From Dermatophilaceae bacterium (GTDB lineage: Bacteria > Actinomycetota > Actinomycetes > Actinomycetales > Dermatophilaceae): DNA of 64,000 nucleotides. Positions 1-64,000 of the stretch are shown here, in pieces. The DNA is taken from the NCBI GenBank assembly GCA_037045045.1, contig JBAOHL010000007.1, positions 241,950 to 305,949 of the forward strand, read 5' to 3'. Numbering within the stretch: position 1 is the stretch's first letter; the number at the start of each line of letters is the position of its first letter. The position numbers and the translations under genes are program-made. The notes under the pieces were generated by a model that was given only the letters and a program-made list of their open reading frames with translations, made no database searches and was not told the origin of the DNA.

Positions 1-119
1 CGTATCGACAGGTGCACGCGAAGACCCTCGCCGGTCTCAAGGGGTCCTACGACCAGGTCCCCCAGTTGGAGGGTCGCGAGTCTCGGCTCGATCGGCCCTT
101 CCTCTCCCCGCAGGGCTGA
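1..119 (+). CDS. 3' end of an unidentified upstream gene (partial, runs off the window start)
   Basis: The frame beginning at nt 3 is open from the window edge to TGA 117-119 (YRQVHAKTLAGLKGSYDQVPQLEGRESRLDRPFLSPQG*), with GC-rich third codon positions. The stop lies 2 nt before the ATG of the CHAT gene, suggesting co-transcription. No domain is recognisable in 38 aa. Confidence 0.35.
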   Translation, partial: YRQVHAKTLAGLKGSYDQVPQLEGRESRLDRPFLSPQG

Positions 120-121
120 CC

Positions 122-3100
122 ATGTCCGACCTCGTCGATTCGGTCGCCGAGTCGACGTGCCCTCTGGTCGAGGCACGACCACACGCCACCGTGGAGATCC
201 CGGTCGTCCCGCGGCACCTGCGGCCGGCCGCAAGGACCACGCTGGACGTCCCGGATGTGTCGGACGTGTCCCAGACCCCGGACGCCCCGGACGTCCCGGA
301 TGTGTCGGACGTGTCCCAGACCCCGGACGCCCCGGACGTCCCGGATCCGCGCCGTACTTCGGCCGCGGCCCCGACGGCGCCCGCGACGGGGGCTGACCGG
401 AGGGCAGACGACCCGTCGGGCACCACGGGGATCTCGGACGCGTCCGAACCCCACGAGTCGCCGGAGCGCCCGTGGACCGAAGTCCGGGTCGCGCACGGCG
501 ACCTGCGTTTCGCCCGCGACCACGTCCTCGTCGGTCACTACCCCGGTGCGAGCATCTCGGGCGGTGAGGCTGCGCTCGACCAACTGCTCGGCGGACGGCT
601 GAGCCGGGCCGCCCAACTCGGGATCTACCCCGGGCCGGCCGAAACGTGCCAGGTCTTCACCGACCCGGCCGACTGGGCCAGCCCTCCCGGGGCGATCGTG
701 GCCGGCCTCGGCCCCATGGGAGAGCTCTCCGCAGCCACCCTGGCCCGGGCATGCGCGCATGCCGCGCTCACGGCGGCCATGGCCCGCCTGAGCACGGCCG
801 ACCGGCGGCGCGACGAGGACGCGCCGCCGGAGGTCCTCCAGCTGCGTCTCGCGTCCGTGCTCGTCGGCACCGGGGGGGCCGGCGGCCTGCCGGTCCGCGA
901 CAGCGTCCAGGCCATCCTCACCGGCATCCAACGGGCCAACGACCGATTGCGCGACACCGCCGTGCCTGTCCACATCGCGCGGGTCCAGTTCCTCGAACTG
1001 TGGCAGGACCGCGCCCTACAGGCCCTCGACGCGGTGCACAAGAGCCTGGCGAGCAGCGCTCTGGAGTACGCGTTCCTCGCCGAGCGCTCGCTGCGCGAGT
1101 TGCCCGGGCGCCAGCGCCGGCTCGTCTTCGGCGACTCGCCGGGGTGGTGGCAACGGGTCCGGGTCCGCTGCGAGAGCGACGGTGGCCTCACCTTCGAGGC
1201 ATCGATCCGCCGGGCCGGGGCGCCGATCCGGACCGTGCCGACCCAGCGCGCCCTCGTCGATCGCCTCGTCGAGCAGCTGGTTGACTCGCCGACTCCGGAC
1301 CCCGCTGCCGCGCGTGCTCTGTTCGAACTGCTCTTCCCCAACGACCTCAAGGCCAAGGCGCCGGACACCGACAACGTCGTCCTCGTCGTCGACCCCGACG
1401 CGGCCCGCTACCCATGGGAGCTGCTCGACGACCACGGGACCGAAGCCGGCCGGGTGCCGCTGGGCGTCCGTCGCGGGCTGCTGCGCCAGCTCGAGGGGTC
1501 CGCCATGCGAAGTCACGTCCTCTCGGCCACCAATGCCAGGGCCCTCGTCGTCGGCGACTCCGACTCGGGCCTGGCTCCGCTGCCGGCGGCCCAAGCCGAG
1601 GCCCGATCGGTGGCCGAGGCCCTCACCGGCCATGGGTTCCGGACCGAGTGCCTCGTCACTGCGTCGGGCCAGTCGGTCGTCCAGGCGCTCTTCGACGGCG
1701 CGTACCGGGTCGTGCACCTGGCCGGTCACGGTGTCTACCGCTTCCCCGTCGGCGACGGGCCTTCGTCCGGCGTCCACGCCGTCGGCGGAAGCCCCGACGG
1801 TGCAGTCCCCACGGTCACCGGCATGGTGCTAGGCCGGGGCATGTACCTCACGGCCGCCGAGATCGGCCAGATGCGCCAGGTGCCCGAGCTTGTCTTCGTC
1901 AACTGTTGTCACCTGGGCACCGTCGCCGGGGAGGACCGAGGATCTCGCCCCGCGGCCAACTTCCACAAGCTCGCGGCGAGCTTCGCGACTGAGCTCATCG
2001 CCATCGGCGTCCGGGCGGTCGTCGCCTGCGGGTGGGCGGTCGACGACGAGGCCGCCGGCGCTTTCGCGGACGCCCTGTATGCCGCGTTGCTCGACGGATC
2101 CCCGTTCGGCGAGGCCGTCAAGACGGCCCGGCGCACGACGTGGGAAGCCTTCCCCGACGTCAATACCTGGGGCGCCTACCAGTGCTACGGCGACCCCGAC
2201 TACGTCCTCGTGCTCGATCCCGGGGCCACCGCGTCGTCGCGTACCCACGACCTGGCCTGCCTGCAGGCCGCCGAGGTCGAGATCGAGAACCTCAGCCACG
2301 CCGTCGAGGTCACCAGGGACACCCGCGTCGGGCTGCGCCGGCTCGAACAGATCCAGTCCGTGCTGGCCGACGCCGGGCTGGACGGGCCGGGACTGCACAT
2401 CCACCTCGCTCGCGCCTACCACCGCCTCGGCAGCTACGAGAAGGCGTCGGGTCACTTCCAGGCGGTCCTCGACGCCGGTGGTTCGGCGCTGACCGTCGCC
2501 GACTTCGAGCTGTGGATCGACCAGGGGGTGCGCATCCTGACCAGTGGGCTCGATCCCGCGGCGATGACCGACCAGGCGGTGCAGACGATCGACGAGTCGA
2601 TCGGGGCGCTGCGGCGCTTCCTCGCGAACCCGACGACCATGGTGGCGGCCACTCCCACTGCCCCTGGCGATTTGCCCGGGCCGGCGGAGCTGGGGGAGCG
2701 GATCGGGATCGACCGCCTGTGGCGCGTCGCGAGCGCGTACAAGCGCCTGGCGCTGCTCACCTGTCCGGCCCGAGGCACCGGTCGGGCGCCTGCGGACGCG
2801 GACTGGACCCGGTGCCGCCAGGCGCTCGCGGACATGGCGGACTGGTATGCCGCGGCCAGCGGTGCCGCCCACCGGCTCGACTCCCGTCAGTACGGTGCCC
2901 TGGCCAACTCGCTCGTGGCCGAGGCCGCCCTGCGCTGGCGACCCGGGCCGGGCCGGGCGGCCCTGCCGCTGGCCGCCGGGCGGGCGGCCATCGCCAACGC
3001 CCGCGAGGGAGCCTGTCGCGCGGCCGACCACCGACCGACCTTCAGCGGCATCGTCGCCTGCGCGGACCTGGCCGCTCTCGAGGTGCTCTGGGGCGTCCGG

Positions 3101-6738: not shown

Positions 6739-7139
6739 TGGCTCCCACCGACAACGACCCTGCCGTCGCGGCCAAGGCCGTCGCCCGTCACGTCAGGGTC
6801 ACTCCGATGAAGGCCCGCCGGATCGTCGACCTCATCCGTGGCAAGAACGCCACCGAGGCCGTGTCCGTGCTCCAGTTCGCCCCACAGGCCGCCTCCGACC
6901 CGGTCCGCAAGGTCTTGCAGAGCGCCATGGCCAACGCCCGGGTCAAGGCCGACCAGCTGTCCGAGGCCTTCGACGAGCGCGCGCTCGTGGTGTCCGCGGC
7001 ATACGTCGACGAGGGTCCGACGATGAAGCGCTTCCGGCCCCGCGCGCAGGGTCGGGCGGCGCGGATCACCAAGCGCACCAGCCACATCACCGTCGAGGTC
7101 AGCCAGCCGGCGCTCTCGGCCAGGAAGGGAGCCCGCTGA
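6738..7139 (+). CDS. rplV: 50S ribosomal protein L22
   Basis: 133-aa ORF whose start overlaps the rpsS stop by 1 nt. L22-like sequence ([21 protein letters not shown]). Confidence 0.96.
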
Positions 7140-7969
7140 TGGGGCAGAAGGTCAACCCACACGGCTTCCGGCTCGGCATCACGACCGAGCACAAGAGCCG
7201 CTGGTTCGCCGACTCCACCAAGGAGGGCCAGCGCTACCGCGATTACGTCAAGGAAGACGTCGACATCCGCAAGCTCATGGCCAAGGGCATGGAGCGCGCC
7301 GGCATCTCCCGCGTCGAGATCGAGCGCACCCGTGACCGGGTCCGCGTCGACATCCACACCGCCCGCCCGGGCATCGTCATCGGACGCCGCGGCGCCGAGG
7401 CCGACCGGATCCGCGGCGAGTTGGAGAAGCTCACCGGCAAGCAGGTCCAGCTCAACATCCTCGAGGTGAAGAATCCCGAGATCGACGCCCAGCTCGTCGC
7501 CCAAGGGATCGCCGAGCAGCTCTCGGCGCGCGTGTCGTTCCGTCGGGCCATGCGCAAGGGGATGCAGTCGGCCCTGCGGGCCGGCGCCAAGGGCATCCGG
7601 GTGCAGTGCTCCGGTCGTCTTGCCGGCGCCGAGATGAGCCGTTCGGAGTTCTACCGCGAGGGGCGGGTCCCGCTCCACACGCTGCGCGCCAACATCGACT
7701 TCGGCTTCTACGAGGCCCGCACGACGTTCGGGCGCATCGGCGTCAAGGTGTGGATCTACAAGGGCGACCTCACTGCCCGCGAGCTGGCCCAGCAGCAGGC
7801 CGCGGCGCCGCGGCCGCCGCGCGGCCCGCGCCGCGACGGTCCCGACCGGCCCACCCGCGCCCGCCGTGACCGCGAGGGTATGCCGCGCGCCGACGAGGGC
7901 GGCGCCGTCGCCGTCGCCGTCGACACGGCCGAAGCGCCCGCCGCCGCGACCGAGAACGAGCAGGTCTGA
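7139..7969 (+). CDS. rpsC: 30S ribosomal protein S3, with an Arg/Pro/Ala-rich C-terminal extension
   Basis: 276 aa starting [15 protein letters not shown], containing KH and S3-C domain sequence. Confidence 0.97.
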
Positions 7970-7970
7970 C

Positions 7971-8390
7971 ATGTTGATCCCCCGTCGAGTCAAACACCGC
8001 AAGCAGCACCACCCGGGCCGCTCGGGCGCTGCCAAGGGCGGCACGACCATCGCGTTCGGCGACTACGGCATCCAGGCCCTCGAGCCGGCATACCTCACCA
8101 ACCGCCAGATCGAGGCCGCGCGTATCGCGATGACCCGCTACATCAAGCGTGGCGGCAAGGTGTGGATCAACGTCTACCCCGACCGGCCGCTGACCAAGAA
8201 GCCCGCCGAGACCCGGATGGGCTCGGGGAAGGGCTCCCCGGAGTGGTGGATCGCCAACGTCAAGCCCGGCCGAGTGTTGTTCGAGCTGTCCGGGGTGCAT
8301 GAGCCGGTGGCCCGCGAGGCGATGCGTCTGGCGATGCACAAGCTCCCGATGAAGTGCCGGTTCGTGCGTCGTGAAGGCGGTGACATCTGA
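7971..8390 (+). CDS. rplP: 50S ribosomal protein L16
   Basis: ATG 7971 ([13 protein letters not shown]) within ORF 7866-8390; 139 aa. Confidence 0.96.
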
Positions 8391-8991: not shown

Positions 8992-9356
8992 TCCAGCAGG
9001 AGTCACGGCTGCGGGTGGCCGACAACACCGGTGCCAAGGAACTGTTGTGCATCCGGGTCCTCGGCGGCTCGGGACGACGGTATGCCGGGATCGGCGACAC
9101 CATCGTCGCGGCGGTCAAGGACGCCATCCCCGGTGGCAACGTCAAGAAGGGCGACGTCGTCAAGGCGGTCGTCGTGCGCACCGTCAAGGAGCGCCGCCGC
9201 CCGGACGGCTCGTACATCAAGTTCGACGAGAACGCCGCGGTCATCCTCAAGAACGACGGCGACCCGCGCGGGACGCGCATCTTCGGCCCGGTGGGCCGCG
9301 AGCTTCGAGAGAAGAAGTTCATGAAGATCATCTCGCTGGCCCCGGAGGTGCTCTGA
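8988..9356 (+). CDS. rplN: 50S ribosomal protein L14
   Basis: 122 aa starting [18 protein letters not shown]. Confidence 0.98.
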
Positions 9357-10491: not shown

Positions 10492-10600
10492 GACCCCCGG
10501 GGCCCAAGGCCCCACGACGACCACCGAATCGACACCGAAGGTCGGCTCCCGGCATACCGCCGGGGACCGAAACCGCGGTGAGGAAGGGCGGAGAAGCCCG

Positions 10601-11010: not shown

Positions 11011-11550
11011 ATGTCGCGCATCGGACGTATGCCGGTCCCCGTCCCCACGGGCGTGGACGTCACCATCGACGGCCGGGCCGTCTCCGTCAAGGGCCCCAAG
11101 GGCACGCTCGCGCTCACCGTGGCCGAGCCGATCGCCGTGGCTCGTGGCGAGAGCGGCGCCATCGAGGTGACCCGCCCCGACGACGAGCGCGCTTCGCGCT
11201 CGCTGCACGGGCTGACCCGCACCCTCATCAACAACATGGTCCTCGGGGTGACCGAGGGCTACGAGAAGAAGATGGAGATCGTCGGCACGGGGTACCGCGT
11301 CGTCGCCAAGGGGACCAGCCTCGAGCTGGCCCTGGGCTATAGCCACTCCATCACTGTCGAGGCGCCCCAGGGCATCTCCTTCGTCGTGGAGGCCCCGACC
11401 CGGTTCTCCGTCCAGGGCATCGACAAGCAGCAGGTGGGCGAGGTGGCCGCGAACATCCGCAAGCTGCGCAAGCCCGACCCGTACAAAGGCAAGGGCGTGC
11501 GCTACGCGGGCGAGCACATCCGCCGCAAGGTCGGAAAGGCCGGGAAGTAA
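11011..11550 (+). CDS. rplF: 50S ribosomal protein L6
   Basis: 179 aa starting [17 protein letters not shown]. Confidence 0.97.
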
Positions 11551-15268: not shown

Positions 15269-16114
15269 GTGCTCGGCCGCCGCCACACGCCGGGACGCAC
15301 GGATGCCCAGTTGCTGCGCATGCGGGCTGCCGGTCTGCTCGTCGGACGCACCCTGGCCGCCCTCGTCGAAGCGAGCCGTCCTGGCGTGCGGACCGCCGAC
15401 CTGGACCGCCTGGCCGAGACCTTCATCCGTGACCACGGCGGGGTCCCGTCCTTCCCCGAGGTCCCCGGCTACCGGCATACCTTGTGCACGTCGGTCAACG
15501 ACCAGGTCGTCCACGGGATCCCCGGTCCCTACGTCCTGCGCGAGGGCGACCTGCTGTCCATCGACTGTGGAGCCATCGTCACGGGCTGGCACGGCGATGC
15601 CGCGCTGACCCTCGTCGTCGGTGGTCCGCAGGCGGCCCGCCCGGCCGACGCGCTCCTCAACACGGCGACCGAACACTCCCTCTGGGCGGGGATCGCAGCG
15701 CTCGCGGTGGGGGAGCGACTGTATGCCGTCGGGGAGGCGATCGAGGGAGCCATCACGGACAGTGCCGCACGCGACGGGCTCAGCTACGGGATCGTCGAGG
15801 ACTACGTCGGGCATGGCATCGGGACCGAGATGCACGAGGATCCACAGATCTACAACTACGGGGTCCGAGACAAGGGTCCCAAGGTCCGCGCGGGGTTCAC
15901 CGGAGCCCTGGAGCCCATGGTGACCCTCGGCAGCCCGAGCACTCGCGTGCTGGCCGACCAGTGGACCGTCGTCACGCAGGACGGGTCGCGAGCGGCCCAC
16001 TGGGAGCACACCGTGGCGGTGCGCGACGAGGGGCTGTGGGTGCTCACCGCCCCGGACGGCGGCCAGGACCGACTGCACAGCCTCGGGGCGGCCTACGCAC
16101 CCGTGACGGAGTGA
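15269..16114 (+). CDS. map: type I methionine aminopeptidase
   Basis: 281 aa from GTG 15269. Metal-ligand contexts are present: DLLSIDCGA, HGIGTEMHEDP, TLEPMV, WEHTVAV. Confidence 0.94.
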   Translation: MLGRRHTPGRTDAQLLRMRAAGLLVGRTLAALVEASRPGVRTADLDRLAETFIRDHGGVPSFPEVPGYRHTLCTSVNDQVVHGIPGPYVLREGDLLSIDCGAIVTGWHGDAALTLVVGGPQAARPADALLNTATEHSLWAGIAALAVGERLYAVGEAIEGAITDSAARDGLSYGIVEDYVGHGIGTEMHEDPQIYNYGVRDKGPKVRAGFTGALEPMVTLGSPSTRVLADQWTVVTQDGSRAAHWEHTVAVRDEGLWVLTAPDGGQDRLHSLGAAYAPVTE

Positions 16115-16486: not shown

Positions 16487-16636
16487 GGGCAGAGCGCCGG
16501 GGAGGTCCGGCCCGCGGCACAGGCGATTTCGGGGTATGCCGGCCGGTGCCGTACGATATCCCGTTGGGTGTCGCGTGCTCGAGACGCCCGTTTCACACTG
16601 TCACGGGCACGCCAGCACCACGGATCGACGGAGGAT

Positions 16637-20840: not shown

Positions 20841-20983
20841 CGAGGCCGGCACGGCATACCGGCATTGCGCCGGCCCCGGACGGGCCCCACCGGCAACGGT
20901 GCGGGCCCGTCCGGCTGCCGTCTCAGATCGGCCGGTCCATGCCGCCCGATGGTATGCCGCGCGGCATACGTGAAGATGAGGGC

Positions 20984-23380: not shown

Positions 23381-24153
23381 GGCCGGTATGCCGCCGGCGC
23401 GGCGATGCGCACCCCGGCAGCGGTCAGCCCCGCCCGCACCGCCGTCGCGAGGGAGACGGCGCCCGGGGTGTCCCCGTGAACGCAGATCGACCCCGCCGAC
23501 ACGGCGACATCGCCGCCGTCGACCGACGCGACGACGCCGTCGGTGACCAGCCGAACGACCCGGGCGACGACGGCGTCGGGGTCGGTGACGAGAGCGCCCG
23601 GGCGGTCGCGGGGCACCAGCGTGCCCTCGGGCGTGTAGCCGCGGTCGGCGAACGCCTCGGCGACCGTGGGCAGGCCCGCCGCCTCGGCCAACCCGAGCAG
23701 GGCCGACCCGGACAGCCCGAGCACGGCCACCTCGGGCCCGACGGAGCCGATCGCGCGGACCAGCGCCGCGGCCTGACCCTCGTGGGTCACCACCGCGGTG
23801 TAGAGCGCGCCGTGCGGCTTGACATACGCGACCCGGCCGCCGACCGACCTCGCGATCCCGTCGAGCGCCCCGATCTGGTAGCGCACCTCGGCGTCGAGGT
23901 CCTCGGCCGCCACGTCGAGGAAGCGACGCCCGAAACCGGCGAGGTCGCGATAGGACACGTGGGCGCCGATGGCGACACCCGCCTCGACAGCCAAGCGGCA
24001 GGTCCGCACGATGGTGGCGGGGTCGCCGGCGTGGAATCCACACGCAATGTTGGCCGAGGTGACGACTCGCAACAGGCCGGCGTCGTCGCCGAGGCGCCAC
24101 CGCCCGAAGGACTCGCCGACGTCGGCGTTGAGGTCGATGCTGCGCTCGGTCAC
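23377..24153 (-). CDS. pxpA: 5-oxoprolinase subunit A (LamB/YcsF family)
   Basis: IDLNADVGESFG and NIACGFHAGDP motifs are present. The start is taken as GTG 24153; ATG 24243 is the alternative. Confidence 0.85.
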   Translation of the reverse strand: MTERSIDLNADVGESFGRWRLGDDAGLLRVVTSANIACGFHAGDPATIVRTCRLAVEAGVAIGAHVSYRDLAGFGRRFLDVAAEDLDAEVRYQIGALDGIARSVGGRVAYVKPHGALYTAVVTHEGQAAALVRAIGSVGPEVAVLGLSGSALLGLAEAAGLPTVAEAFADRGYTPEGTLVPRDRPGALVTDPDAVVARVVRLVTDGVVASVDGGDVAVSAGSICVHGDTPGAVSLATAVRAGLTAAGVRIAAPAAYRP

Positions 24154-32469: not shown

Positions 32470-34145
<1,676 letters not shown>

Positions 34146-45786: not shown

Positions 45787-45872
45787 TCTCTGGCTCCGAG
45801 CGGGCCTGTGGCCGGCGCTCGCCAGCCGGACGTGGCTGCCGCGGCCCGGAGCCCGCGGCATACCCTCGGGCA

Positions 45873-46877
45873 ATGGACCTCACCGGCCGGCATTTCGTCA
45901 AGGAGATCGACCTCTCGCCCGCCGAATGGATCGGTCTCGTCGACCTCACGGCCGAGCTCAAGGCGGCCCGTCGGGACGGACGCGAGGCACGTGTCCTCGT
46001 CGGCAAGACGATCGCGTTGATCTTCGAGAAGACCTCGACCCGCACCCGCTGTGCCTTCGAGGTCGCGGCATACCACCTCGGTGCCGAGCTGACGTATCTC
46101 GACCCCAGCGGCAGCCAACTCGGGCACAAGGAATCGGCGAAGGACACCGCCCGGGTGCTCGGGCGGCTGTACGACGGGATCGAGTTCCGGGGGTCGGATC
46201 ACCGCGAGGTCGAGACCCTGGCGGAGTATGCCGGGGTGCCGGTCTACAACGGCCTCACCGACATGTGGCACCCCACCCAGTCGCTGTGCGACGTCGTGAC
46301 GATGGGGGAGCATTGCGCGAAGCCCCTGAGCGAGGTCGCCTTCGCCTACGTCGGCGATGCCCGGTACAACATGGGCAACTCGCTGCTTGTCGCCGGGGCC
46401 ATGTCGGGGATGGATACCCGCATCGTCGCCCCCCAGTCGCTCTGGCCGACCGGCGAGGTGCTCGCCCACGCGCGGGAGTCGGCCCGTCGCACGGGTGCGC
46501 GGATCACCGTCACCGACGACCTCGACGCGGGGGTGGCCGGGGTGGACTTCGTGCACACCGATGTCTGGGTGTCGATGGGCGAACCCGAGGACGTCTGGGC
46601 CGAACGCATTGGCCAACTCACCCCGTACCAGGTGACCACCGAGGTCCTGGCCGCCAGCGGCAATCCGCAGGTCAAGTTCATGCACTGCTTGCCTTCGTTC
46701 CACAACCGTGAGACGGCGGTGGGGGAGCGGATCTTCCGGGAGTTCGGCCTGTCGGCCATGGAGGTCACCGACGAGGTCTTCGAATCCGCGGCGTCGATCG
46801 TCTTCGACCAAAGCGAGAACCGGATGCACACCATCAAGGCCGTGCTCGCGGCGACCCTCGCCGGCGCCTCGGTCTGA
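45873..46877 (+). CDS. argF: ornithine carbamoyltransferase (long ArgI/ArcB-like form)
   Basis: 334 aa with [13 protein letters not shown], the HKES context, DVWVSMGE and HCLPSFHN motifs. No other arg or arc genes are nearby. Confidence 0.88.
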
Positions 46878-47094: not shown

Positions 47095-47811
47095 CTACAG
47101 GGAGCGCCCGACCAGCGCTCCGATCCCGTAGGTCAGGGTCATCGCCAGCCAACCGCCGACGACGTTGCGAGCCACCGGACGGCGCCATCCGGACCCGCCG
47201 AGTCGAGCGCTGAGGACCCCGGTCAGCGCGAGGGCGCCGACGACGCCGGCCACCGTCGCCGGGAGCCGGATCGACTCCGGGACCAGCGTGATGACCAAGA
47301 GCGGCAAGACCGCTCCGAGCGCGAAGGACACGACCGAGGCGAGGGCCGCTTGCCATGGGCTGGTGAGGTTCTCCGGGTCGATCTGTAACTCGACCTCGGC
47401 GTGCGCGGCCAGCGCATCGTGTGCGGTGAGTTCGACGGCTACCCGGTGGGCGAGGTCGGGCGTCAGGCCCTTGCCCTGGTAGATCGCGGTGAGCTCGGCC
47501 AGCTCCGCTTCGGGCATCTCGGCCAGTTCGCGACGTTCCTTGTGCAACAGGGCGCGTTCGGTGTCGCGTTGGGTGCTCACCGACACGTACTCGCCGACGC
47601 CCATCGAGAAGGCGCCGGCGCTGAGCCCCGCGATGCCGGCGGTGAGGACGGCGGTGCGGTCGGTCGTCGCGCCGGCCACCCCGACGACGAGCCCGGCCAC
47701 CGAGACGATGCCGTCGTTGGCGCCGAGGACAGCGGCACGCAACGCGTTGAGTCTGCTGCCGTGCGAGCCGGTATGCCGTTCGCCGCGGTGTCTCGGATCC
47801 GCCACCCGCAC
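47095..47811 (-). CDS. VIT1/CCC1-family (vacuolar iron transporter-like) membrane protein
   Basis: LRAAVLGANDGIVSVAGLVVGVAGA and GEYVSVSTQRD motifs are present. GTG start at 47811 or 47805, within track ORF 47095-48219. Confidence 0.82.
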   Translation of the reverse strand: MRVADPRHRGERHTGSHGSRLNALRAAVLGANDGIVSVAGLVVGVAGATTDRTAVLTAGIAGLSAGAFSMGVGEYVSVSTQRDTERALLHKERRELAEMPEAELAELTAIYQGKGLTPDLAHRVAVELTAHDALAAHAEVELQIDPENLTSPWQAALASVVSFALGAVLPLLVITLVPESIRLPATVAGVVGALALTGVLSARLGGSGWRRPVARNVVGGWLAMTLTYGIGALVGRSL

Positions 47812-47875: not shown

Positions 47876-48316
47876 GTGGACGCACCGAATCGGCTGGTCG
47901 TCGGTGCCGCCCTCGTCGACCGGCTCGAGCGGCCGAGTCGGGTGCTGGCCGCCCGGCGCGTCTCCCCGCCGGAACACGCCGGTGGCTGGGAGTTGCCCGG
48001 CGGCAAGGTCGAGCCGGGGGAGTTGCCCCGCGAGGCCCTGGTCCGCGAGCTCGCCGAGGAACTCGGCGTGACCATCGTCGTCGGCGACCCCGTCCTCGGC
48101 CCGGGTCCAGACAGCTCCTGGCCGTTGGGCCGCGGTCTGCGGATGCTCGTCTGGCTCGCCGAGGTGCGCGACGGCATACCGGCTCCGGGGCCGGACCACG
48201 ACGCGGTGCGCTGGCTCACCGCCGAGGACCGGTATGCCGTGTCGTGGCTTCCCGGCGACCTCCCCGTCGTCGAGGCGGTGGCCAGTCGGCTGGTCGGGGA
48301 CGCCGCCGGACCCTGA
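47876..48316 (+). CDS. NUDIX hydrolase (MutT-like)
   Basis: GTG 47876. Nudix box [24 protein letters not shown]; 146 aa. Confidence 0.85.
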
Positions 48317-48329: not shown

Positions 48330-50240
<1,911 letters not shown>

Positions 50241-54431: not shown

Positions 54432-55598
54432 GTGACCACCCAGACCATGCCAACCGCCGGGGCGCAGGCCGGCCCTGCCACCCCGGTGCTCTCGGTCCGC
54501 GATCTCGTCGTCCACTTCCCCACCGAGGACGGGCTCGTCAAGGCCGTCGACGGGATGAGCTTCGACCTGTATGCCGGCAAGACGCTCGGCATCGTCGGGG
54601 AGTCCGGGTCGGGCAAGTCCGTGACGAGCCAGGCCATCATGGGCCTGCACCGCGGCACCCGGGCCCGGGTGTCCGGGCAGATCCGTCTCGGCGAGGACCA
54701 GCTGCTCACCATTCCCGACGAGCGGCTGCGCACCCTGCGCGGTCGGGACGTCGCCATGGTGTTCCAGGACCCGCTCTCGGCGCTGCATCCGTACTACACC
54801 GTCGGCAACCAGATCACGGAGGCCTACCAGGTCCACCACGACGTGAGCCGTTCGGCGGCCCGCGCGCGGACCGTCGAGATGCTCGGGCTCGTCGGTATCC
54901 CCAACCCGGCCAAGCGGATCGACCAGTATCCCCACGAGTTCTCCGGCGGGATGCGCCAACGCGCGATGATCGCCATGGCGTTGATCAACGACCCGAAGCT
55001 GCTCATCGCCGACGAGCCGACGACCGCCCTGGACGTCACCGTCCAGGCCCAGATCCTCGACCTCATGAAGGACCTGCAGCAGCAGTTCGGGTCGGCGATC
55101 ATCCTCATCACCCACGACCTCGGGGTGGTCGCTCACATGGCCAACGACATCATGGTCATGTACGGCGGTAAGGCCGTCGAGAAGGGCACCGTCGACCAGG
55201 TGTTCTACCACCCCCAGCACCCCTACACGATGGGTCTGCTCAAGTCGATGCCCCGGCTCGATGAGGTCCGCCGGACCCAGCTCGACCCGATCCCCGGCAA
55301 CCCGCCCTCGCTCATCAACCTGCCCACCGGCTGTGCCTTTCACCCTCGATGCGCCTACCGCGCCGAGGTCCCTGACGGCCGCTGCGACCGCGAGGCGCCG
55401 CAACTGGAGGTGCTGGCCACCGGGCAGGAGGCCCGCTGCTTCCTCACCGAGGCCGATCGGATCCGGCTTCGGTTCGACCAGCAGACCCGTTCCGAGCCCT
55501 CGCCCGAGGAGCTCGCCGCCCGCACCGGTGAGGGCGACGAGAGCGGGCCGACCCGCCAGAACAGCGGGACGACCTCGCAGGAGGGTGAGCCACGATGA
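54432..55598 (+). CDS. ABC transporter ATP-binding protein (OppD/DppD-like)
   Basis: Walker A GESGSGKS, signature FSGGMRQR and Walker B LLIADEPTTALD, with a C-terminal oligopeptide-type extension. Confidence 0.92.
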   Translation: MTTQTMPTAGAQAGPATPVLSVRDLVVHFPTEDGLVKAVDGMSFDLYAGKTLGIVGESGSGKSVTSQAIMGLHRGTRARVSGQIRLGEDQLLTIPDERLRTLRGRDVAMVFQDPLSALHPYYTVGNQITEAYQVHHDVSRSAARARTVEMLGLVGIPNPAKRIDQYPHEFSGGMRQRAMIAMALINDPKLLIADEPTTALDVTVQAQILDLMKDLQQQFGSAIILITHDLGVVAHMANDIMVMYGGKAVEKGTVDQVFYHPQHPYTMGLLKSMPRLDEVRRTQLDPIPGNPPSLINLPTGCAFHPRCAYRAEVPDGRCDREAPQLEVLATGQEARCFLTEADRIRLRFDQQTRSEPSPEELAARTGEGDESGPTRQNSGTTSQEGEPR

Positions 55599-56668: not shown

Positions 56669-57550
56669 ATGGCTCGCCTGGTGTTCGTCCACGCGCACCC
56701 GGACGACGAAACGCTCGCGACGGGTGTGGCGATCGCCCACTACGCCGCGGGCGGCCACGACGTGCATGTCGTCACCGCGACCCTCGGCGAGCACGGCGAG
56801 ATCATCCCGCCCGAGCTGGCACACCTGGGCGCCGATCGCGACGACACCCTCGGCGAGTACCGGCGAGGGGAGCTCGCCGCGGCGCTGCGCGCCCTCGGCG
56901 CGACCGGGCACCATCTCGGCGGACCGGGCCGCTACCGCGACAGCGGCATGGCCGGTATGCCGTCGGCCAGCGACCCGCGCGCGTTCGCGTCCGCCGACGT
57001 CGCCGAGGCGGCGGGTTTGCTCGGCACCCTGCTGCGCGATGTCGGCGCCGACGTCGTCGTGTCCTACGACCGCGGCGGCGGTTACGGACACCCCGACCAC
57101 ATCCAGACCCGCCGGGTCCTCGAGGCGGCCCTCGCCGGGCTGCCGTCGCGGTCGGGCGTCGCGGCATACGAAGTCGTCGTCCCGCGCTCGTGGGCGGCGC
57201 AGGACCGCGAGTGGCTCGCCGGGCACGTCCCCGACGAGTCGGATCTGCACGTGCCGGCCCCCGACGAGCCGTATGCCGTGGGCGTCGTCGACGACGCCCT
57301 GGTGACCCATGTCGTCCTCGACGAGGCCGCCGGTCGGCGACAGGTGCGGGCGCTGCAGGCCCACCGCACCCAGGTGCGGGTGGTCGACGGGTACTACGCG
57401 CTGAGCAACGCGGTGGCCGCACGGCTGGCGACCCGGGAGGCATTCGTCCGCCTGGATCCCGCGACCGGTGAGCGGGTCCCGCCGGGCGAGGGCGGGTGGG
57501 CGAGCGACCTGCTGGCCCCACGGACCGACCGGCCAGGACCTCGGCCATGA
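56669..57550 (+). CDS. mshB: N-acetyl-1-D-myo-inosityl-2-amino-2-deoxy-alpha-D-glucopyranoside deacetylase (mycothiol biosynthesis, PIG-L family)
   Basis: 293 aa. FVHAHPDDETLATGVAIAHY...VHVVTATLGEHGEI closely resembles the MshB N-terminus. The paralogue Mca cannot be fully excluded by eye. Confidence 0.8.
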   Translation: MARLVFVHAHPDDETLATGVAIAHYAAGGHDVHVVTATLGEHGEIIPPELAHLGADRDDTLGEYRRGELAAALRALGATGHHLGGPGRYRDSGMAGMPSASDPRAFASADVAEAAGLLGTLLRDVGADVVVSYDRGGGYGHPDHIQTRRVLEAALAGLPSRSGVAAYEVVVPRSWAAQDREWLAGHVPDESDLHVPAPDEPYAVGVVDDALVTHVVLDEAAGRRQVRALQAHRTQVRVVDGYYALSNAVAARLATREAFVRLDPATGERVPPGEGGWASDLLAPRTDRPGPRP

Positions 57551-58953: not shown

Positions 58954-60099
58954 ATGAGCACACCGGTCGTCTCTCCGGTGCATCTGCGGGCCGTGTCGGC
59001 CCCGAACCAGCCCGAGCCCACCCCGGAGCTCGAGGAGCTCTACCGAGGGTTCGAGAAGGAACTGCTCGTCCCGCTGTGGACCGAAATCGGCGACCTCATG
59101 CCGCCTCATCCGCGCTCCAAGGCCCAGCCCCACCTGTGGGAATGGAGCACGCTGCTCGACCTGGCCGGCAAGGCCGGGCACATCGTGCCGGTCGGCCGCG
59201 GCGGCGAGCGGCGGGCCATCGCCCTGGCCAACCCCTCACTCGGCGGCAAGCCCTACGCCACGCCCACCCTGTGGGCGGCGATCCAGTACCTCATGCCCGG
59301 CGAGGACGCGCCGGAGCACCGACACACCCAGAACGCCTTCCGCTTCGTCGTCGAGGGCGAGGGGGTGTGGACCGTCGTCGAGAGCGACCCCGTGCCGATG
59401 AGCCGCGGCGACTTCCTCCCGCAGGCCGGCTGGAACTGGCACGCCCACCACAACGCGGCGACCGAACCGATGGCCTGGATCGACGGGCTGGACATCCCCT
59501 TCGCCTACGAGGTCGAGGGCCTGTTCTTCGACTACGGGCGCGACGAGATCACCGAGGCTGAGCACGCCACCCCCGAGCGCTCGCGCTCCGAGCGGCTGTG
59601 GGGCCATCCGGGCCTGCGGCCGGTCTCCCAGCTGGGCGCCTCGCAGGGCTCGCCGCTGCTGAACTACAAGTGGGTCGACACCGACCGCGCTCTCAGCGAC
59701 CAGCTCGCCCTCGAAGCCGAGGGGTATGCCGTGACCGTCGAGCCGGGCCACGCCGCGGTCCGGTACAGCAACCCGACGAATGGCCTGGACTGTCTGCCGA
59801 CGATCCGCACCGAGATGCACCGCATCGTCAAGGGCGTGCAGACGGCGACCCGCCGCGAGGTGGGCTCCTCGGTCTTCGCGGTGTTCAACGGGGCCGGGCG
59901 GGTCACCGTGGGCGACTTCGGCTGGAGCGTCAGTCGTGGCGACGTCTTCGTCGTCCCGTCGTGGATGCCGCTGACGATCACCTCGGAGGCATCCCCCTCC
60001 GACTCGGACTCCGGCGCCCTGGACCTCTTCCGGTTCAGCGACTCCCCGATCTTCGAGAAGCTCAACCTCGCCCGGATCTCTGTGGAGGGGACGGACTGA
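58954..60099 (+). CDS. gentisate 1,2-dioxygenase (bicupin)
   Basis: 381 aa containing PLWTEIGDLMPPHP and the His-rich cupin motif APEHRHTQNAFRFVVEGEG...AGWNWHAHHN. Confidence 0.9.
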   Translation: MSTPVVSPVHLRAVSAPNQPEPTPELEELYRGFEKELLVPLWTEIGDLMPPHPRSKAQPHLWEWSTLLDLAGKAGHIVPVGRGGERRAIALANPSLGGKPYATPTLWAAIQYLMPGEDAPEHRHTQNAFRFVVEGEGVWTVVESDPVPMSRGDFLPQAGWNWHAHHNAATEPMAWIDGLDIPFAYEVEGLFFDYGRDEITEAEHATPERSRSERLWGHPGLRPVSQLGASQGSPLLNYKWVDTDRALSDQLALEAEGYAVTVEPGHAAVRYSNPTNGLDCLPTIRTEMHRIVKGVQTATRREVGSSVFAVFNGAGRVTVGDFGWSVSRGDVFVVPSWMPLTITSEASPSDSDSGALDLFRFSDSPIFEKLNLARISVEGTD

Positions 60100-60944
60100 T
60101 GCGCCTGGCGACTGTGCGCACGGCCGACGGCTCGACGGCAGCCGGCCGTGTCGAGGGCGACGGATACGTCGAGCTCGGCGTGCCCGACCTCGTCGACCTG
60201 CTGGCCGATCCCAATTGGCGCGAGCGCGCGGCATCCGCGAGTGGCGCGGTCCGCCCGCTGGCCGACGTCACGTATGCCGCGGCCGTCCTGCGGCCGAGCA
60301 AGATCGTCTGCGTCGGGCTCAACTACCGCAGCCACATCCTCGAGATGGGTCGGGACCTCCCGCAGTACCCGACCCTCTTCTCCAAGTTCGCCGACACCCT
60401 CATCGGGGCCGGTGACGACATCTTGCGCCCGGTCGAGACCGAGGAGTTCGACTGGGAGTGCGAACTCGGCGTCGTCATCGGCGCGACCGTGCGTCGCGCC
60501 ACGGCGGAGCAGGCGCAGGCGGCGATCGCCGGCTTTACGGTCGTCAACGACATCACCTGCCGGGATTGGCAGTTCCGCACCCGGGAGTGGCTGCAGGGGA
60601 AGAACTGGCAGTCCTCGACACCGGTCGGGCCGGTCGTCGTCACCCCTGACGAGCTGCCCGGCGGGATCCGTCCGGCCCTGGACTTCCGCACCGTCGTCGA
60701 CGGCGTGACGATGCAGGACAACAACACCGGCGACCTCCTGTTCGACCCGGTCGCGCTCGTCGAGTACATCTCGACGATGGTCACCCTGCGCCCCGGCGAC
60801 CTCATCGCCACCGGGACGCCGGGCGGTGTCGGGCACGCCCGCAAGCCCCCGGTCTACCTCACTGCCGGTCAGCGCGTGGTCACCGAGATCGACGGCATCG
60901 GCCGGCTCGACAACCTCGTCGTCGCCGACGGGCCAGCCGCATGA
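60099..60944 (+). CDS. fumarylacetoacetate hydrolase-family enzyme (fumarylpyruvate hydrolase)
   Basis: ATG 60099 overlaps the preceding stop. FAH-domain motifs are present: VGLNYRSH, FDWECELGVVIG, GDLIATGTPGGVG. Confidence 0.88.
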   Translation: MRLATVRTADGSTAAGRVEGDGYVELGVPDLVDLLADPNWRERAASASGAVRPLADVTYAAAVLRPSKIVCVGLNYRSHILEMGRDLPQYPTLFSKFADTLIGAGDDILRPVETEEFDWECELGVVIGATVRRATAEQAQAAIAGFTVVNDITCRDWQFRTREWLQGKNWQSSTPVGPVVVTPDELPGGIRPALDFRTVVDGVTMQDNNTGDLLFDPVALVEYISTMVTLRPGDLIATGTPGGVGHARKPPVYLTAGQRVVTEIDGIGRLDNLVVADGPAA

Positions 60945-61707: not shown

Positions 61708-62949
61708 ATGAGCACACGTGACGTCGATGTCGTCGTCGTCGGAGGGGGGATCGGCGGGCTCGCTGCCGCCCAGGCGCTGGCCAAGAAGGGCCTGGCCGTG
61801 CGGGTCCTGGAGATGGCCCCGGAGTTCGGCGAGGTGGGCGCGGGCCTGCAGATCGGCCCGAACTGCACCCGCATCCTCAACCAGTGGGGCCTTCTCGACG
61901 AGGTCAAGTCGCTCGGCGTGATTCCCGAGAACATCATTATGCGCGACGCGATGGATGGGTCCGAGTTGACTCGTCTGGACCTCAGGGACGTCGAGAAGCG
62001 CTACGGGTTCCCCTACATGGTCATCCACCGCAGCGACCTGCACGCGACGTTCCTGCGGGCCTGCCAGCGCGAGGGCGTCGAGCTGATCAACAACGTGCGC
62101 GTCACGGCATACGAGAACGTCGGTGACGGCGCCCAGGCGATCAGCGACGGGCGCGTCGACGAAGCCGAGGTCGTCATCGCCGCGGACGGGATCAAGTCGG
62201 TGGCGCGCGGCTACCTCGTGCAGGACGAGCCGCAGAACTCCGCCTATGTCGCCTACCGAGGCGCGGTCCCCATCGACGAGGTCCGCGGCAACGACATCTC
62301 CGAGACCGACGTCGTGGTCTACGTCGGCCCGGCGCGTCACTTCGTCCAGTACCCGCTGCGCCAGGGCGAGATGTTCAACCAGGTCGCCGTGTTCCAGTCG
62401 CCCAAGGCCCTCGCCGGCGAGGAGGACTGGGGGACCCCCGACGAGATGGACGGCGCGTTCGTCGGCTCCTGCGCCCCGGTCATCACCGGTCTGCAGCACA
62501 TGTGGCGCGACAAGTGGTGGCGGATGTTCGACCGGCTGCCGATCCCCAACTGGATCAACGGGCGGGTCACGCTGCTCGGCGACTCCGCGCACGCTCCGCT
62601 GCAGTACCTCGCCCAGGGCGCCATCATGGCGATGGAGGACGCCTGGGTGCTCTCCGAGCACGTCGCCCTGCAAGGGGTCAAGGGGTCCGTTGCCCAGGGC
62701 AGCTCACCGGGCGTCGACTGGGACAAGGCGCTGGCGGCGCTCAACGCGGTACGTCCGATCCACACCAAGCGGGTGCTCACCACCGGTCGCGAGTGGGGCG
62801 AGTTCTGGCACCACGACGGGGCCAAGCGCGACTGGCGCAACGAGGTGTTGCGCGCGCGCGACGTCCACGACTACTCCTTCGTCGACTGGCTGTACGGGCC
62901 GACCGCCATGACGCCCGAGCAGATCCCGCCGATGTTCGAGAAGCTCTGA
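61708..62949 (+). CDS. FAD-dependent aromatic monooxygenase, 3-hydroxybenzoate 6-hydroxylase-like
   Basis: 413 aa with the FAD fingerprint VVVVGGGIGGLAAA and the DG and GD motifs (IAADGIKS, LLGDSAHAPLQYLAQGA). The gentisate-cluster context supports the substrate assignment. Confidence 0.85.
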   Translation: MSTRDVDVVVVGGGIGGLAAAQALAKKGLAVRVLEMAPEFGEVGAGLQIGPNCTRILNQWGLLDEVKSLGVIPENIIMRDAMDGSELTRLDLRDVEKRYGFPYMVIHRSDLHATFLRACQREGVELINNVRVTAYENVGDGAQAISDGRVDEAEVVIAADGIKSVARGYLVQDEPQNSAYVAYRGAVPIDEVRGNDISETDVVVYVGPARHFVQYPLRQGEMFNQVAVFQSPKALAGEEDWGTPDEMDGAFVGSCAPVITGLQHMWRDKWWRMFDRLPIPNWINGRVTLLGDSAHAPLQYLAQGAIMAMEDAWVLSEHVALQGVKGSVAQGSSPGVDWDKALAALNAVRPIHTKRVLTTGREWGEFWHHDGAKRDWRNEVLRARDVHDYSFVDWLYGPTAMTPEQIPPMFEKL

Positions 62950-63003
62950 CGCAGCGAGGCTTCGGACGGGTATGCCGGGTGACCGGAGCCCCGTCCGGCC
63001 GAG

Positions 63004-63044: not shown

Positions 63045-63158
63045 GTCTGCCGGGCGGCTCGGCCGTATCCGGTGTCGAGCCGCTCGGCCGTACCCGGTGT
63101 CTGCCGGGCGGCTCGGCCGTAACCGGTGTCGAGCCGCTCGGCCGTACCCGGTGTCTGG
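63045..63158. repeat. 54-bp tandem repeat (2 copies plus the start of a third), each built from two 25/29-nt sub-repeats
   Basis: gtctgccgggcggctcggccgtaNccggtgtcgagccgctcggccgtacccggt begins at 63045 and again at 63099, and gtctgg at 63153 starts a third copy. The core gctcggccgtaNccggtgtc recurs at about 63057, 63082, 63111 and 63136. Confidence 0.9.
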
Positions 63159-63292
63159 TCGCGGGGCCGTCGCGCCCGCTGGCCCTGCGCGCGCCGCCGC
63201 GGTCGGCCGCCCGGTCTGACCTACCGTGGTGGCGCCGCCCGTTGCCGACCCGAGGGCCGGGCCCGGCACGGCGACGGTGAGGAGGTCCGGGA

Positions 63293-64000
63293 GTGTCGCT
63301 TCGCGACGCGGGCGCGATCCTCACGCGGTTCGGCGTGGGCCTGGTGCTGCTCGGCGCGGCCTACTTCGCGTTGTCCTGGTGGGTCACCCGCGCTGTCCCG
63401 GCGACGGTGCGGATCGAGGGCGTCAACGTCGGCGGCACCAGCCCCGAGGAGGCCATCGCCCGGCTCGACAGGGAGCTCGGCCCCAAGGCGAAGGTTCCCG
63501 TGCACGTCGACCTCGGCAACTCCGGGCAGTCCATCGTCCTGGACCCGGCCAGCAGTGGGCTGTCGCTGGACCTGCCTGCGACGGTCGAGGGTCTGGCCGG
63601 CTTCAGCCTCGACCCTGCGGTCGTGTGGTCGCATCTGACCGGCGAGGTCCAGCGCCCGGTATCCGTCGTCATCGACCGCGAGCGGTTGACGGCTGCCGTC
63701 GCCCAGAAGGCCAAGACCGTCGAGGTCACCGTCAAGGAGGGGTCGGTGACCTTCCCGGGCGGGGTCCTCACCGTGACCAACTCCGTGACGGGGCTGGCCC
63801 TGGACGTCCCCGACGCGGTGAGTCAGATCTCGCGCACCTGGCCGCGACAGTCCACTCTTACGGCCGCGGCGGTCCTCACCCCACCGGTGCTGAGCCAGGG
63901 TGCCATCGATAGCGCGGTACGCGACTTCGCCACCCCGGCGATGTCCGGGCCGGTCACCGTTGTCGTGGGGACTCAGACCGTCGCGCTGAGCCCAGCCGAC
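63293..64000 (+). CDS. membrane-anchored VanW/YoaR-like protein (5' part; runs off the window end)
   Basis: This frame is not in the ORF track because it has no stop in the window. GTG 63293 follows GAGGAGG. The N-terminal TM segment is ILTRFGVGLVLLGAAYFALSWWV, followed by repeated modules as in VanW-family N-terminal regions. Translated by hand through 64000 without a stop. Confidence 0.6.
   Translation, partial: MSLRDAGAILTRFGVGLVLLGAAYFALSWWVTRAVPATVRIEGVNVGGTSPEEAIARLDRELGPKAKVPVHVDLGNSGQSIVLDPASSGLSLDLPATVEGLAGFSLDPAVVWSHLTGEVQRPVSVVIDRERLTAAVAQKAKTVEVTVKEGSVTFPGGVLTVTNSVTGLALDVPDAVSQISRTWPRQSTLTAAAVLTPPVLSQGAIDSAVRDFATPAMSGPVTVVVGTQTVALSPAD

Follow-up and report, generated by a model that had tools for sequence, protein, structure and literature searches.

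Hyper-abundant oligomers in bacterial DNA are known from few clades, i.e., the DNA uptake sequences (DUS) of Neisseriaceae, the uptake signal sequences (USS) of Pasteurellaceae and the octamer HIP1 of cyanobacteria, and whether they originate by drive or by selection has long been debated. In Elhai's review such words fall into three classes, namely Chi, uptake sequences and highly iterated palindromes (HIPs) (PMC4390886), and the meningococcal DUS makes up approximately 1% of its genome (Frye et al. 2013, PMC3630211). Here we describe an independent strong case in Actinomycetota: the non-palindromic octamer GTATGCCG (CGGCATAC when it lies on the minus strand) in a 64,000-nt stretch of a Dermatophilaceae bacterium (assembly GCA_037045045.1, contig JBAOHL010000007.1, positions 241,950 to 305,949), hereafter the window, with an excess of approximately 50-fold, 60-80% occupancy of permissive sites and dialects among sister lineages. 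The octamer was first noticed in a model's reading of the letters (the sequence-only reading), which knew of no equivalent element in Actinobacteria; our full-text literature search likewise found no description of GTATGCCG, or of uptake-type sequences in Actinomycetota.

The window holds 62 exact copies, 36 on the plus strand and 26 on the minus strand, giving a density of 0.97 copies/kb. This is exactly the count of the sequence-only reading; 59 of its 62 coordinates are also exact, and the other three are approximately 10 nt off (6997 rather than 7007, 24219 rather than 24229, 33626 rather than 33637). Over 100 dinucleotide-preserving shuffles of the window the mean was 1.1 copies (maximum 4), and the Markov expectation was 1.1, 1.9 and 2.9 copies at orders 1, 2 and 3, respectively. 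Markov orders 4-6 come near 62 copies because the octamer itself provides most of its own sub-words, with 62 of the 102 GTAT/ATAC tetramers of the window falling within it. The GC content of the window is 70.9%, rather than the ~72% estimated by eye.

The 8-bp core is sharply defined. One-mismatch variants with equal A/T content have 0-2 copies each in the window, and one-off variants are at background level both there and in the 469-kb pool of loci described below. The one-off variants listed previously lie at 17252 (ATATGCCG), rather than 17262, and at 28329 and 50426 (GTATGCCA), the last in place of 50427. Flanking positions carry at most 0.4 bit each, with the consensus g-GTATGCCG-[C/T/G]-G in window and pool, so that the extended consensus first proposed, (C)(C)G-GTATGCCG-(C)G, was partly right. 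As the sequence-only reading held, this is no dispersed repeat element: the flanks are unrelated, no longer repeat was found, and GTATGCCG is a bare octamer.

Placement relative to genes was assessed with a codon-usage-based gene model (74 genes, 92% of the window), in which the ribosomal cluster and other genes were compared with Pfam. Coding sequences contain 48 of the 62 copies, and the remaining 14 (23%; 15 if the glmM start lies 3' of 29530) lie in the 7.7% non-coding fraction, i.e., 0.81/kb in coding DNA versus 2.8/kb in non-coding DNA, a 3.5-fold difference. Synonymous-codon shuffles of each gene gave 4.2 +/- 1.8 copies (maximum 11) against the 48 observed. The sequence-only reading had named three ways in which its claim could fail, a count near the shuffle or Markov expectation, copies belonging to a longer mobile repeat and an enrichment confined to the window. 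The first two were not found, since 62 copies stand against 1-3 in the whole window and 48 against 4.2 in coding DNA, and the flanks are unrelated.

All six frame and strand combinations occur within genes, so the earlier phrase "every reading frame" is literally true, but two of them account for 38 of the 48 coding copies, namely xxG-TAT-GCC-Gxx (Tyr-Ala, 23 copies) and, on the other strand, xCG-GCA-TAC (Ala-Tyr, 15 copies). The octamer nearly saturates the positions that protein coding permits, being present at 23 of 29 xG-Tyr-Ala-Gx contexts, 15 of 25 [Ser/Pro/Thr/Ala]-Ala-Tyr contexts, 4 of 6 Arg-His-Thr contexts and 4 of 11 xGT-Met-Pro contexts. In doing so it employs the rare codons TAT, GCA and CAT, and 23 of the 48 TAT codons in the window belong to its copies. 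The Tyr-Ala dipeptide itself is not enriched in the window proteins (59 observed versus 51.5 expected), and neither is Ala-Tyr, so the force operates on DNA and extends only as far as the protein tolerates; saturated synonymous sites, rare codons and non-coding enrichment lead to the same conclusion. This was the view of the sequence-only reading, whose codon and peptide examples all proved correct. In rpsK the corresponding position reads GTTCGCCG (Phe-Ala) in most relatives but GTATGCCG (Tyr-Ala, TAT-GCC) in the window and in Ornithinimicrobium sp. F0845 (L014 among the relatives' loci listed below). In this comparison the rpsK copy is tied to a Phe/Tyr difference and appears to have arisen independently in the two.

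We attach practically no probability to an artefactual or compositional origin, whether from leftover Illumina adapter, from biased use of codons or codon pairs, or from a miniature mobile repeat. Although a common Illumina adapter, TCGTATGCCGTCTTCTGCTTG, does contain GTATGCCG, its extension GTATGCCGTCTT has 0 copies in the window, and the copies are in frame, conserved across independent assemblies, isolates and metagenome-assembled genomes (MAGs), and present in genomes of cultured strains. Likewise, the preponderance of Tyr-Ala and Ala-Tyr among coding copies might suggest codon or dipeptide bias, which was rejected on the synonymous shuffles, the unenriched dipeptides, the recruitment of rare codons and the fact that non-coding DNA is the most enriched. 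A longer repeat element was rejected on the uninformative flanks.

Metagenomes were seeded with the exact 18-mer GTATGCCGCGCGGCATAC, which comprises two octamer copies (window 20952). It matched 77 metagenome contigs, mostly from activated sludge, and most of the seeded contigs at 67-74% GC carry a further 1-2 copies of the octamer per kb. One wastewater contig, 99.8% identical to window 416-14624, has all nine octamer sites. The RplC of the window is matched only in assemblies from wastewater and activated sludge, and its closest RpoA (93%) is that of Danish wastewater MAGs, which the Ca. Phosphoribacter paper does not mention; look-ups of the genes at the two window edges (122-3337 and 61708-62949), meant to extend the sequence, returned no record. 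A pool of 40 metagenome loci, the window and two relatives contains 616 copies in 469 kb (1.31/kb) against 5-17 expected, the counts being not fully independent as pool loci partly overlap one another. The octamer accounts for about 0.8-1.0% of the DNA in window and pool, and its longest absence from the pool is 4.4 kb. Motif-free islands were considered as a sign of foreign DNA, and with this longest gap no island is present; nor are mobile elements present in the motif-rich loci.

Among relatives, the octamer was counted in loci spanning rpoA +/-10 kb from GTDB representative genomes, including MAGs from Danish wastewater treatment plants (WWTP):

L006, Danish WWTP MAG: 1.28 copies/kb
L007, Danish WWTP MAG: 0.95 copies/kb
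L017, Micrococcales MAG (3.9 kb locus): 0.77 copies/kb
L013, Dermatophilaceae MAG: 0.65 copies/kb
L014, Ornithinimicrobium sp. F0845: 0.57 copies/kb
L015, Humibacillus xanthopallidus: 0.52 copies/kb
L019, Segeticoccus rhizosphaerae: 0.46 copies/kb
L009, Terrabacter aeriphilus: 0.38 copies/kb
L008, Intrasporangium MAG: 0.34 copies/kb
54 Streptomyces-type loci (background): 0.02 copies/kb

For the nine enriched loci the Poisson probability against the Streptomyces background ranges from 1e-4 to 5e-39. No copies (0) were found in the sampled loci of Phycicoccus flavus, Janibacter, Arsenicicoccus and MAGs L010 and L022; the loci of Kineococcus and Angustibacter likewise had none, and that of Occultella had 1. 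When nine proteins were concatenated for a rough neighbour-joining tree, the carriers filled the core Intrasporangiaceae/Dermatophilaceae clade. The third way of failing was not found either, as metagenome contigs and relatives' loci are enriched too, and judging from these loci the enrichment is genome-wide.

The sites of the window are given below, with their state in relatives where compared. Plus sites are exact matches to GTATGCCG and minus sites to CGGCATAC; coding copies are read in the gene model, sense and antisense give the orientation relative to the gene, and peptides are in one-letter code.

2077..2084, plus: CHAT-domain protein gene, sense, CTG-TAT-GCC-GCG = LYAA
2845..2852, plus: CHAT-domain protein gene, sense, TGG-TAT-GCC-GCG = WYAA
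4259..4266, plus: rplC, sense, GAG-TAT-GCC-GTG = EYAV
6997..7004, minus: rplV, antisense, GCG-GCA-TAC-GTC = AAYV
7878..7885, plus: rpsC, sense, GGT-ATG-CCG-CGC = GMPR
8086..8093, minus: rplP, antisense, CCG-GCA-TAC-CTC = PAYL
9080..9087, plus: rplN, sense, CGG-TAT-GCC-GGG = RYAG; CTACGCCG in outgroups (synonymous gain)
10550..10557, minus: intergenic, 44 nt 5' of rpsH
11027..11034, plus: rplF, sense, CGT-ATG-CCG-GTC = RMPV; GACTTCCG/GACTCCCG in relatives
15473..15480, minus: map-like gene, antisense, CGG-CAT-ACC = RHT; common to L006/L007, GTGTGCCG in others
15721..15728, plus: map-like gene, sense, CTG-TAT-GCC-GTC = LYAV; same word in L006, L007, L012 and L013 (gapped blastn)
16534..16541, plus: intergenic, 96 nt 5' of infA; common to L006
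17996..18003, plus: rpsK, sense, CCG-TAT-GCC-GCG = PYAA
18844..18884: rpsD-rpoA terminator-like hairpin, left arm GGATGCCG (18844-18851, one-off), right arm CGGCATAC (18877-18884, exact minus copy), z = -4.0
20852..20859, minus: intergenic, 12 nt 3' of rplQ
20952..20969, copies at 20952 (plus) and 20962 (minus): 18-nt perfect palindrome GTATGCCG-CG-CGGCATAC in the rplQ/truA gap, folding as a 7-bp stem; this 18-mer also in L006 and the 77 metagenome contigs
21311..21318, plus: truA, sense, GTA-TGC-CGC = VCR; common to L006/L007
23037..23044, plus: carboxyltransferase C/D gene, antisense, CGG-CAT-ACC = RHT
23386..23393, plus: LamB/YcsF gene, antisense, GCG-GCA-TAC-CGG = AAYR
24219..24226, minus: intergenic, between divergent LamB/YcsF and pullulanase genes
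24628..24635, plus: pullulanase-type gene, sense, RYAA
24975..24982, minus: pullulanase-type gene, antisense, PAYR
25375..25382, plus: pullulanase-type gene, sense, SYAV
26148..26155, minus: pullulanase-type gene, antisense, AAYA
27790..27797, plus: MarR/ArsR-type regulator gene, antisense, AAYL
28492..28499, minus: intergenic, 30 nt 5' of rplM
28900..28907, plus: rplM, sense, GTG-TAT-GCC-GGC = VYAG
29523..29530, minus: glmM 5' end, RHT within the called open reading frame, may precede the true start
31967..31974, plus: carbonic anhydrase gene, antisense, RHT
32829..32836, minus: fumarate hydratase gene, sense, GMPS
33626..33633, minus: fumarate hydratase gene, sense, LYAD
34083..34090, plus: fumarate hydratase gene, antisense, TAYR
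34553..34560, minus: PfkB kinase gene, sense, MYAV
35614..35621, plus: DUF4245 gene, sense, RYAA
37458..37504: inverted pair between divergent xseA and ispH, GTATGCCG at 37458 (plus) and CGGCATAC at 37497 (minus), 31-nt spacer
39480..39487, plus: intergenic, between a MaoC-dehydratase gene and rmuC
39925..39932, plus: rmuC, antisense, TAYN
40806..40813, minus: rmuC, sense, WYAA
41431..41438, plus: S-adenosylmethionine (SAM)-methyltransferase gene, sense, PYAA
41673..41680, minus: SAM-methyltransferase gene, antisense, AAYP
43200..43207, minus: ychF, antisense, AAYD
43255..43262, plus: ychF, sense, LYAG
44735..44742, plus: MFS transporter gene, sense, LYAV
45856..45863, minus: intergenic, 10 nt 5' of the ornithine carbamoyltransferase gene
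46066..46073, minus: ornithine carbamoyltransferase gene, antisense, AAYH
46226..46233, plus: ornithine carbamoyltransferase gene, sense, EYAG
47771..47778, plus: intergenic, between divergent VIT-family and NUDIX genes
48172..48179, minus: NUDIX gene, antisense, GAC-GGC-ATA-CCG = DGIP (rare frame)
48232..48239, plus: NUDIX gene, sense, RYAV
49817..49824, plus: typA/bipA, sense, GYAA
53970..53977, minus: ABC permease gene, antisense, PAYT
54569..54576, plus: ABC ATPase gene, sense, LYAG
56955..56962, plus: PIG-L deacetylase gene, sense, GMPS
57162..57169, minus: PIG-L deacetylase gene, antisense, AAYE
57271..57278, plus: PIG-L deacetylase gene, sense, PYAV
59724..59731, plus: cupin dioxygenase gene, sense, GYAV
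60272..60279, plus: FAA hydrolase gene, sense, TYAA
61584..61591, minus: maleylpyruvate isomerase gene, antisense, TAYL
62105..62112, minus: flavin adenine dinucleotide (FAD) monooxygenase gene, antisense, TAYE
62970..62977, plus: intergenic, 21 nt 3' of the FAD monooxygenase gene

Related loci were aligned all-against-all, and octamer sites were found to be kept well beyond neutral expectation in every identity class:

pair identity 95-99%: 98% of octamer sites kept, neutral expectation 82%
pair identity 88-95%: 93% of octamer sites kept, neutral expectation 40%
pair identity 80-88%: 69% of octamer sites kept, neutral expectation 22%

For pairs at 95-99% identity, divergence per base amounts to 0.003 within the octamer versus 0.024 overall, with most octamer positions being synonymous. 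Many sites are nevertheless lineage-specific among the aligned relatives, and the octamer is therefore both maintained and newly created.

Two loci without GTATGCCG carry an abundant one-base variant in its place. L012 has 22 copies of GGATGCCG versus 3 of the normally preferred GGACGCCG, a ratio that is about 1 or below in the other genomes compared, save 4:2 in L006, and L016 has 7 copies of GTATGCGG versus 0 of GTACGCGG. These counts identify GGATGCCG and GTATGCGG as dialects within the carrier clade, at a density similar to that of GTATGCCG elsewhere, and the rough tree supports a dialect distribution congruent with phylogeny. In the Ornithinimicrobium locus the word is lengthened to gcAGTATGCCGtg. 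Within the window GGATGCCG is mildly over-represented as well, with 14 copies versus 16 of GGACGCCG (the ratio is ~0.1-0.5 in four non-carrier loci); this could be a secondary dialect or the trace of dialect switching.

Conservation and dialects also bear on a HIP1-like explanation, which we regard as unlikely. Here the word would be what a DNA methyltransferase, or a nicking or mismatch-processing activity, recognises as its target or extended target; horizontal transfer would not be involved, and the word would accumulate by sequence-biased repair or gene conversion, or by selection as a repair or strand-discrimination mark. Actinobacteria are without MutS/MutL and use NucS/EndoMS, for which the strand-discrimination signal is not established, and this leaves room for a marked-word mechanism. 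The literature on HIP1 (GCGATCGC) describes the same 8-bp length, ~1/kb density, in-gene copies in several frames and above-neutral conservation (PMC5861425, PMC4390886), and HIP variants that replace HIP1 in single cyanobacteria resemble the dialects (PMC4390886). However, every HIP is a palindrome, extended forms included (PMC4390886), and GTATGCCG is not. Repair of the very-short-patch type acts on one mismatch type at one position and cannot raise an 8-mer 50-fold from rare neighbours. No one-off variant is conspicuously depleted in the pool, as a repair signature would have it, aligned sites show no C-to-T decay, and the quasi-periodic spacing of HIPs is not seen in the window. A weaker point is that no motif-rich viral contig was found (see below), though resident phages would meet an equal repair bias. 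The only methyltransferase in the window is of a generic SAM-dependent small-molecule/RNA type. One variant, GTATGTCG, stands out in the pool with 22 copies against 5.6 expected from a Markov model (4-fold); a 5-methylcytosine-deamination signature was considered for it and rejected, aligned partner sites being without C6-to-T changes.

Copies also combine into hairpins. Among close pairs in motif-rich loci (spacer up to 50 nt, seeded 18-mers excluded), 32 are inverted and 10 direct. Directly 3' of the rpsD stop codon, the base of a stem-loop is formed by GTATGCCG...CGGCATAC in L006, L008, L013, L015, L017 and L019; at the orthologous site L016 has GTATGCGG...CCGCATAC, i.e., the local dialect, and the window has GGATGCCG...CGGCATAC. 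Stems built from the octamer are very stable (z-scores of -7 to -9; -4.0 in the window), and non-carriers have an unrelated GC-rich hairpin at this position. A separate hairpin, GGCGUC-AUAUAGCG-GNCGCC, lies 25-45 nt 5' of the rpoA start (window 18929-18950; ~9960-9985 in L006-L082). It is kept from Streptomyces to the window with compensatory changes in 6 of 9 predicted pairs and has no matching Rfam family, which suggests an undescribed rpoA leader element.

The octamer has no polarity, in agreement with the sequence-only reading. Plus and minus copies number 36 and 26 in the window; counted together with the nine relatives' loci, all ten on the ribosomal-protein replichore with rpoA on the plus strand, they come to 81:80. 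GC skew in the window tracks gene orientation and indicates no replichore switch there. This bears on a Chi-like reading, in which the word would regulate the end-processing helicase-nuclease RecBCD or AdnAB and label self DNA for repair by recombination; we hold it to be very improbable. Chi words typically diverge between taxa much as dialects do, but Chi is co-oriented with replication, and ~1/kb at a ~50-fold excess is far beyond known Chi words (about 1 per 4.5 kb in E. coli). The octamer does share with Chi the character of a short (5-8 nt), over-represented, species-specific word (PMC4390886). The lack of polarity and the density together exclude both Chi and FtsK/SpoIIIE words.

A binding word of an abundant chromosomal protein (nucleoid-associated, condensin-loading or segregation), kept by ordinary selection, is improbable, although less so than a Chi-like word. 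It would be consistent with the strong site conservation, the intergenic enrichment and the genome-wide distribution with no gap above 4.4 kb in 469 kb, and the dialects could have co-evolved with a DNA-binding protein. Ordinary selection would, however, hardly drive the occupancy of synonymously accessible positions to 60-80% or favour a different residue in the ribosomal protein encoded by rpsK. The chromosome-organising 8-mers, the FtsK-orienting polar sequences (KOPS) and SpoIIIE recognition sequences (SRS), are strongly strand-polar, unlike GTATGCCG, which shows no spacing regularity either.

Viral sequences were searched in IMG/VR. The 18-mer GTATGCCGCGCGGCATAC had 0 matches in 2.9 million viral contigs, the exhaustive pattern CGGCATACC-N0-30-GGTATGCCG gave 30 matches, close to the estimated chance level and none of them motif-rich, and two further patterns gave chance matches and no motif-rich viral contig.

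The reading we favour, tentatively and at somewhat less than even probability, is that GTATGCCG marks self DNA in the manner of DUS and USS, serving DNA uptake or transfer, and has spread by molecular drive. It is favoured because all the sequence-level hallmarks of DUS given by Frye et al. (PMC3630211) are found here, and the comparison, which the sequence-only reading had offered as a resemblance, is strengthened by the dialects, the orthologous hairpin pairs, the conservation and the lack of motif-rich viral contigs among the IMG/VR matches. Under this self-DNA-tag reading, a protein belonging to a DNA import or transfer apparatus would recognise the octamer and bind double-stranded DNA carrying it in either orientation, and word-bearing fragments would be preferentially taken up and recombined. 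One candidate is the ComEA/ComEC machinery together with a Flp/tad pilus, known from Micrococcus luteus, and another is a TraB/FtsK-type double-stranded DNA translocase, a member of a family whose recognition words are 8 bp long. Actinomycetes typically transfer DNA by TraB-type conjugation, and a length of 8 bp fits TraB/FtsK-type translocases. For the first candidate, natural transformation with ComEA/ComEC and tad pili is described in M. luteus, of the same order (PMC12849477). Mutations that create the word would be over-transmitted and those that destroy it under-transmitted, i.e., molecular drive, possibly plus selection. The word would thereby fill protein-tolerated positions, mostly by synonymous change and at times beside a conservative difference (Phe/Tyr in RpsK), and would drift to one-base dialects in sister lineages, presumably on a change of the reader protein. 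With rather more reserve, we propose that Intrasporangiaceae/Dermatophilaceae, including abundant wastewater organisms, may possess sequence-specific machinery for importing DNA, or for passing it from cell to cell, that recognises an 8-bp tag, with one-base dialects acting as barriers between lineages.

Several points weigh against a self-DNA tag. To our knowledge no member of the host family is naturally transformable, and the classic Gram-positive models, B. subtilis and S. pneumoniae, show no sequence preference in DNA uptake. The core has 8 bp, the length of HIP1 and of the FtsK/SpoIIIE/TraB words, against 9-12 bp in USS/DUS. Even or quasi-periodic spacing was not found in the 64-kb window (coefficient of variation of gaps 0.91 versus 0.97 at random, p = 0.31), and no competence genes were found by Pfam among its genes. 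The absence of motif-rich viruses from IMG/VR fits a scarcity of the word in viruses but is weak support, because the share of IMG/VR infecting these hosts is uncertain. Moreover, any strong sequence-specific, strand-symmetric drive or selection, e.g., one of the HIP1 kind, would leave all of these signatures.

If the tag reading is true, sequence-specific DNA exchange would reach Gram-positive bacteria and imply a new DNA receptor; as far as the literature was searched, no uptake-signal system has been described from a Gram-positive phylum before. Frequent homologous exchange would then mould these genomes, even in the codons chosen within ribosomal protein genes, and gene flow among wastewater phosphorus-removal organisms would gain an explanation. 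Cultured carriers (Terrabacter aeriphilus JCM 17687, Humibacillus xanthopallidus KV-663, Segeticoccus rhizosphaerae YJ01 and Ornithinimicrobium sp. F0845) make the mechanism directly testable. Whatever the mechanism, GTATGCCG is a cheap taxonomic and binning marker and can flag foreign DNA in carrier genomes, and it may be required on DNA for the genetic tractability of carrier bacteria.

Further observations concern the surroundings of the sites and the relatives' loci. A 1071-aa CHAT-domain (caspase-like protease) protein is encoded at 122-3337, directly 5' of the rpsJ ribosomal operon, an unusual neighbour that holds two octamer copies like any resident gene. A gentisate-type aromatic degradation cluster at 58954-62949 comprises a cupin dioxygenase, an FAA-family hydrolase, a mycothiol-dependent maleylpyruvate isomerase and a FAD monooxygenase, with a divergent IclR regulator beside it (58011-58826). 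In a k-mer screen, the top k-mer of L034 (uncultured actinobacterial MAG) was considered as an octamer-like word and rejected, as it belongs to an unrelated 22-bp tandem repeat, GGACACAAGCGACCCCTCGGCG, found 6-7 times at 17267-17400. CTCGAG-containing words in L010, L011, L012, L015, L017 and L049 are 3-5-fold above a pooled, mostly Streptomyces background, e.g., CCTCGAG with 44 copies in 19.6 kb of L010, where CTC-GAG are preferred codons; this excess may simply reflect avoidance in Streptomyces and not enrichment in these loci.

The octamer can be set beside several known word systems, among them the repetitive extragenic palindromes (REPs) and bacterial interspersed mosaic elements (BIMEs). 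Some of its intergenic copies form hairpins as these do, but REPs are longer, similar over the whole element and excluded from genes, whereas 77% of the octamer copies are genic and have just the 8-mer in common; REP-type repeats are excluded because copies occur in coding DNA and the flanks are unrelated. Chi is likewise a short, species-specific and over-represented word, but is oriented and far less dense. KOPS (GGGNAGGG), SRS (GAGAAGGG) and the TraB recognition sequence (TRS) of the Streptomyces plasmid cis-acting locus of transfer (clt), GACCCGGA, resemble GTATGCCG in being exactly 8 bp, non-palindromic and read in double-stranded DNA. KOPS and SRS are only few-fold enriched, against ~50-fold here, and their strand skew of >80% towards dif is not found for GTATGCCG (81:80), while TRS copies cluster in the plasmid clt locus and those of GTATGCCG are dispersed and single.

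HIP1 is likewise an octamer, present roughly once per gene in coding and non-coding DNA and conserved beyond neutral expectation; HIPs are 15-300-fold over-represented, and lineage-specific derivative words exist. However, HIPs are palindromes within methyltransferase sites and are quasi-periodic, whereas GTATGCCG is asymmetric, aperiodic in the window and without a known methyltransferase link, palindromes arising only from pairs of its copies. The USS of Pasteurellaceae has a 9-bp core with AT-rich flanking helical-phase motifs, whereas the flanks of GTATGCCG are nearly uninformative beyond g...[C/T/G]G. Both words occur at ~1 copy/kb, are strand-symmetric and lie in genes in few frames encoding tolerable peptides; the molecular-drive model of USS explains accumulation at tolerated positions, and GTATGCCG has the same pattern.

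The DUS of Neisseriaceae differs in having 10-12 bp rather than 8, and the carriers here belong to a Gram-positive, high-GC family without known competence, in which no minor pilin of the ComP type is expected. The stretch ATGCCGTC common to GTATGCCG and the DUS ATGCCGTCTGAA is most simply a coincidence. DUS are scarce in mobile DNA; here no motif-rich virus was found in IMG/VR, with host coverage uncertain. In other respects GTATGCCG is like DUS: short, non-palindromic, present at ~1/kb in both orientations and amounting to ~1% of the genome, placed at permissive in-gene positions, enriched between genes, arranged in inverted pairs as terminator-like stem-loops, diversified into one-base dialects that follow phylogeny, and exceptionally conserved (PMC3630211).

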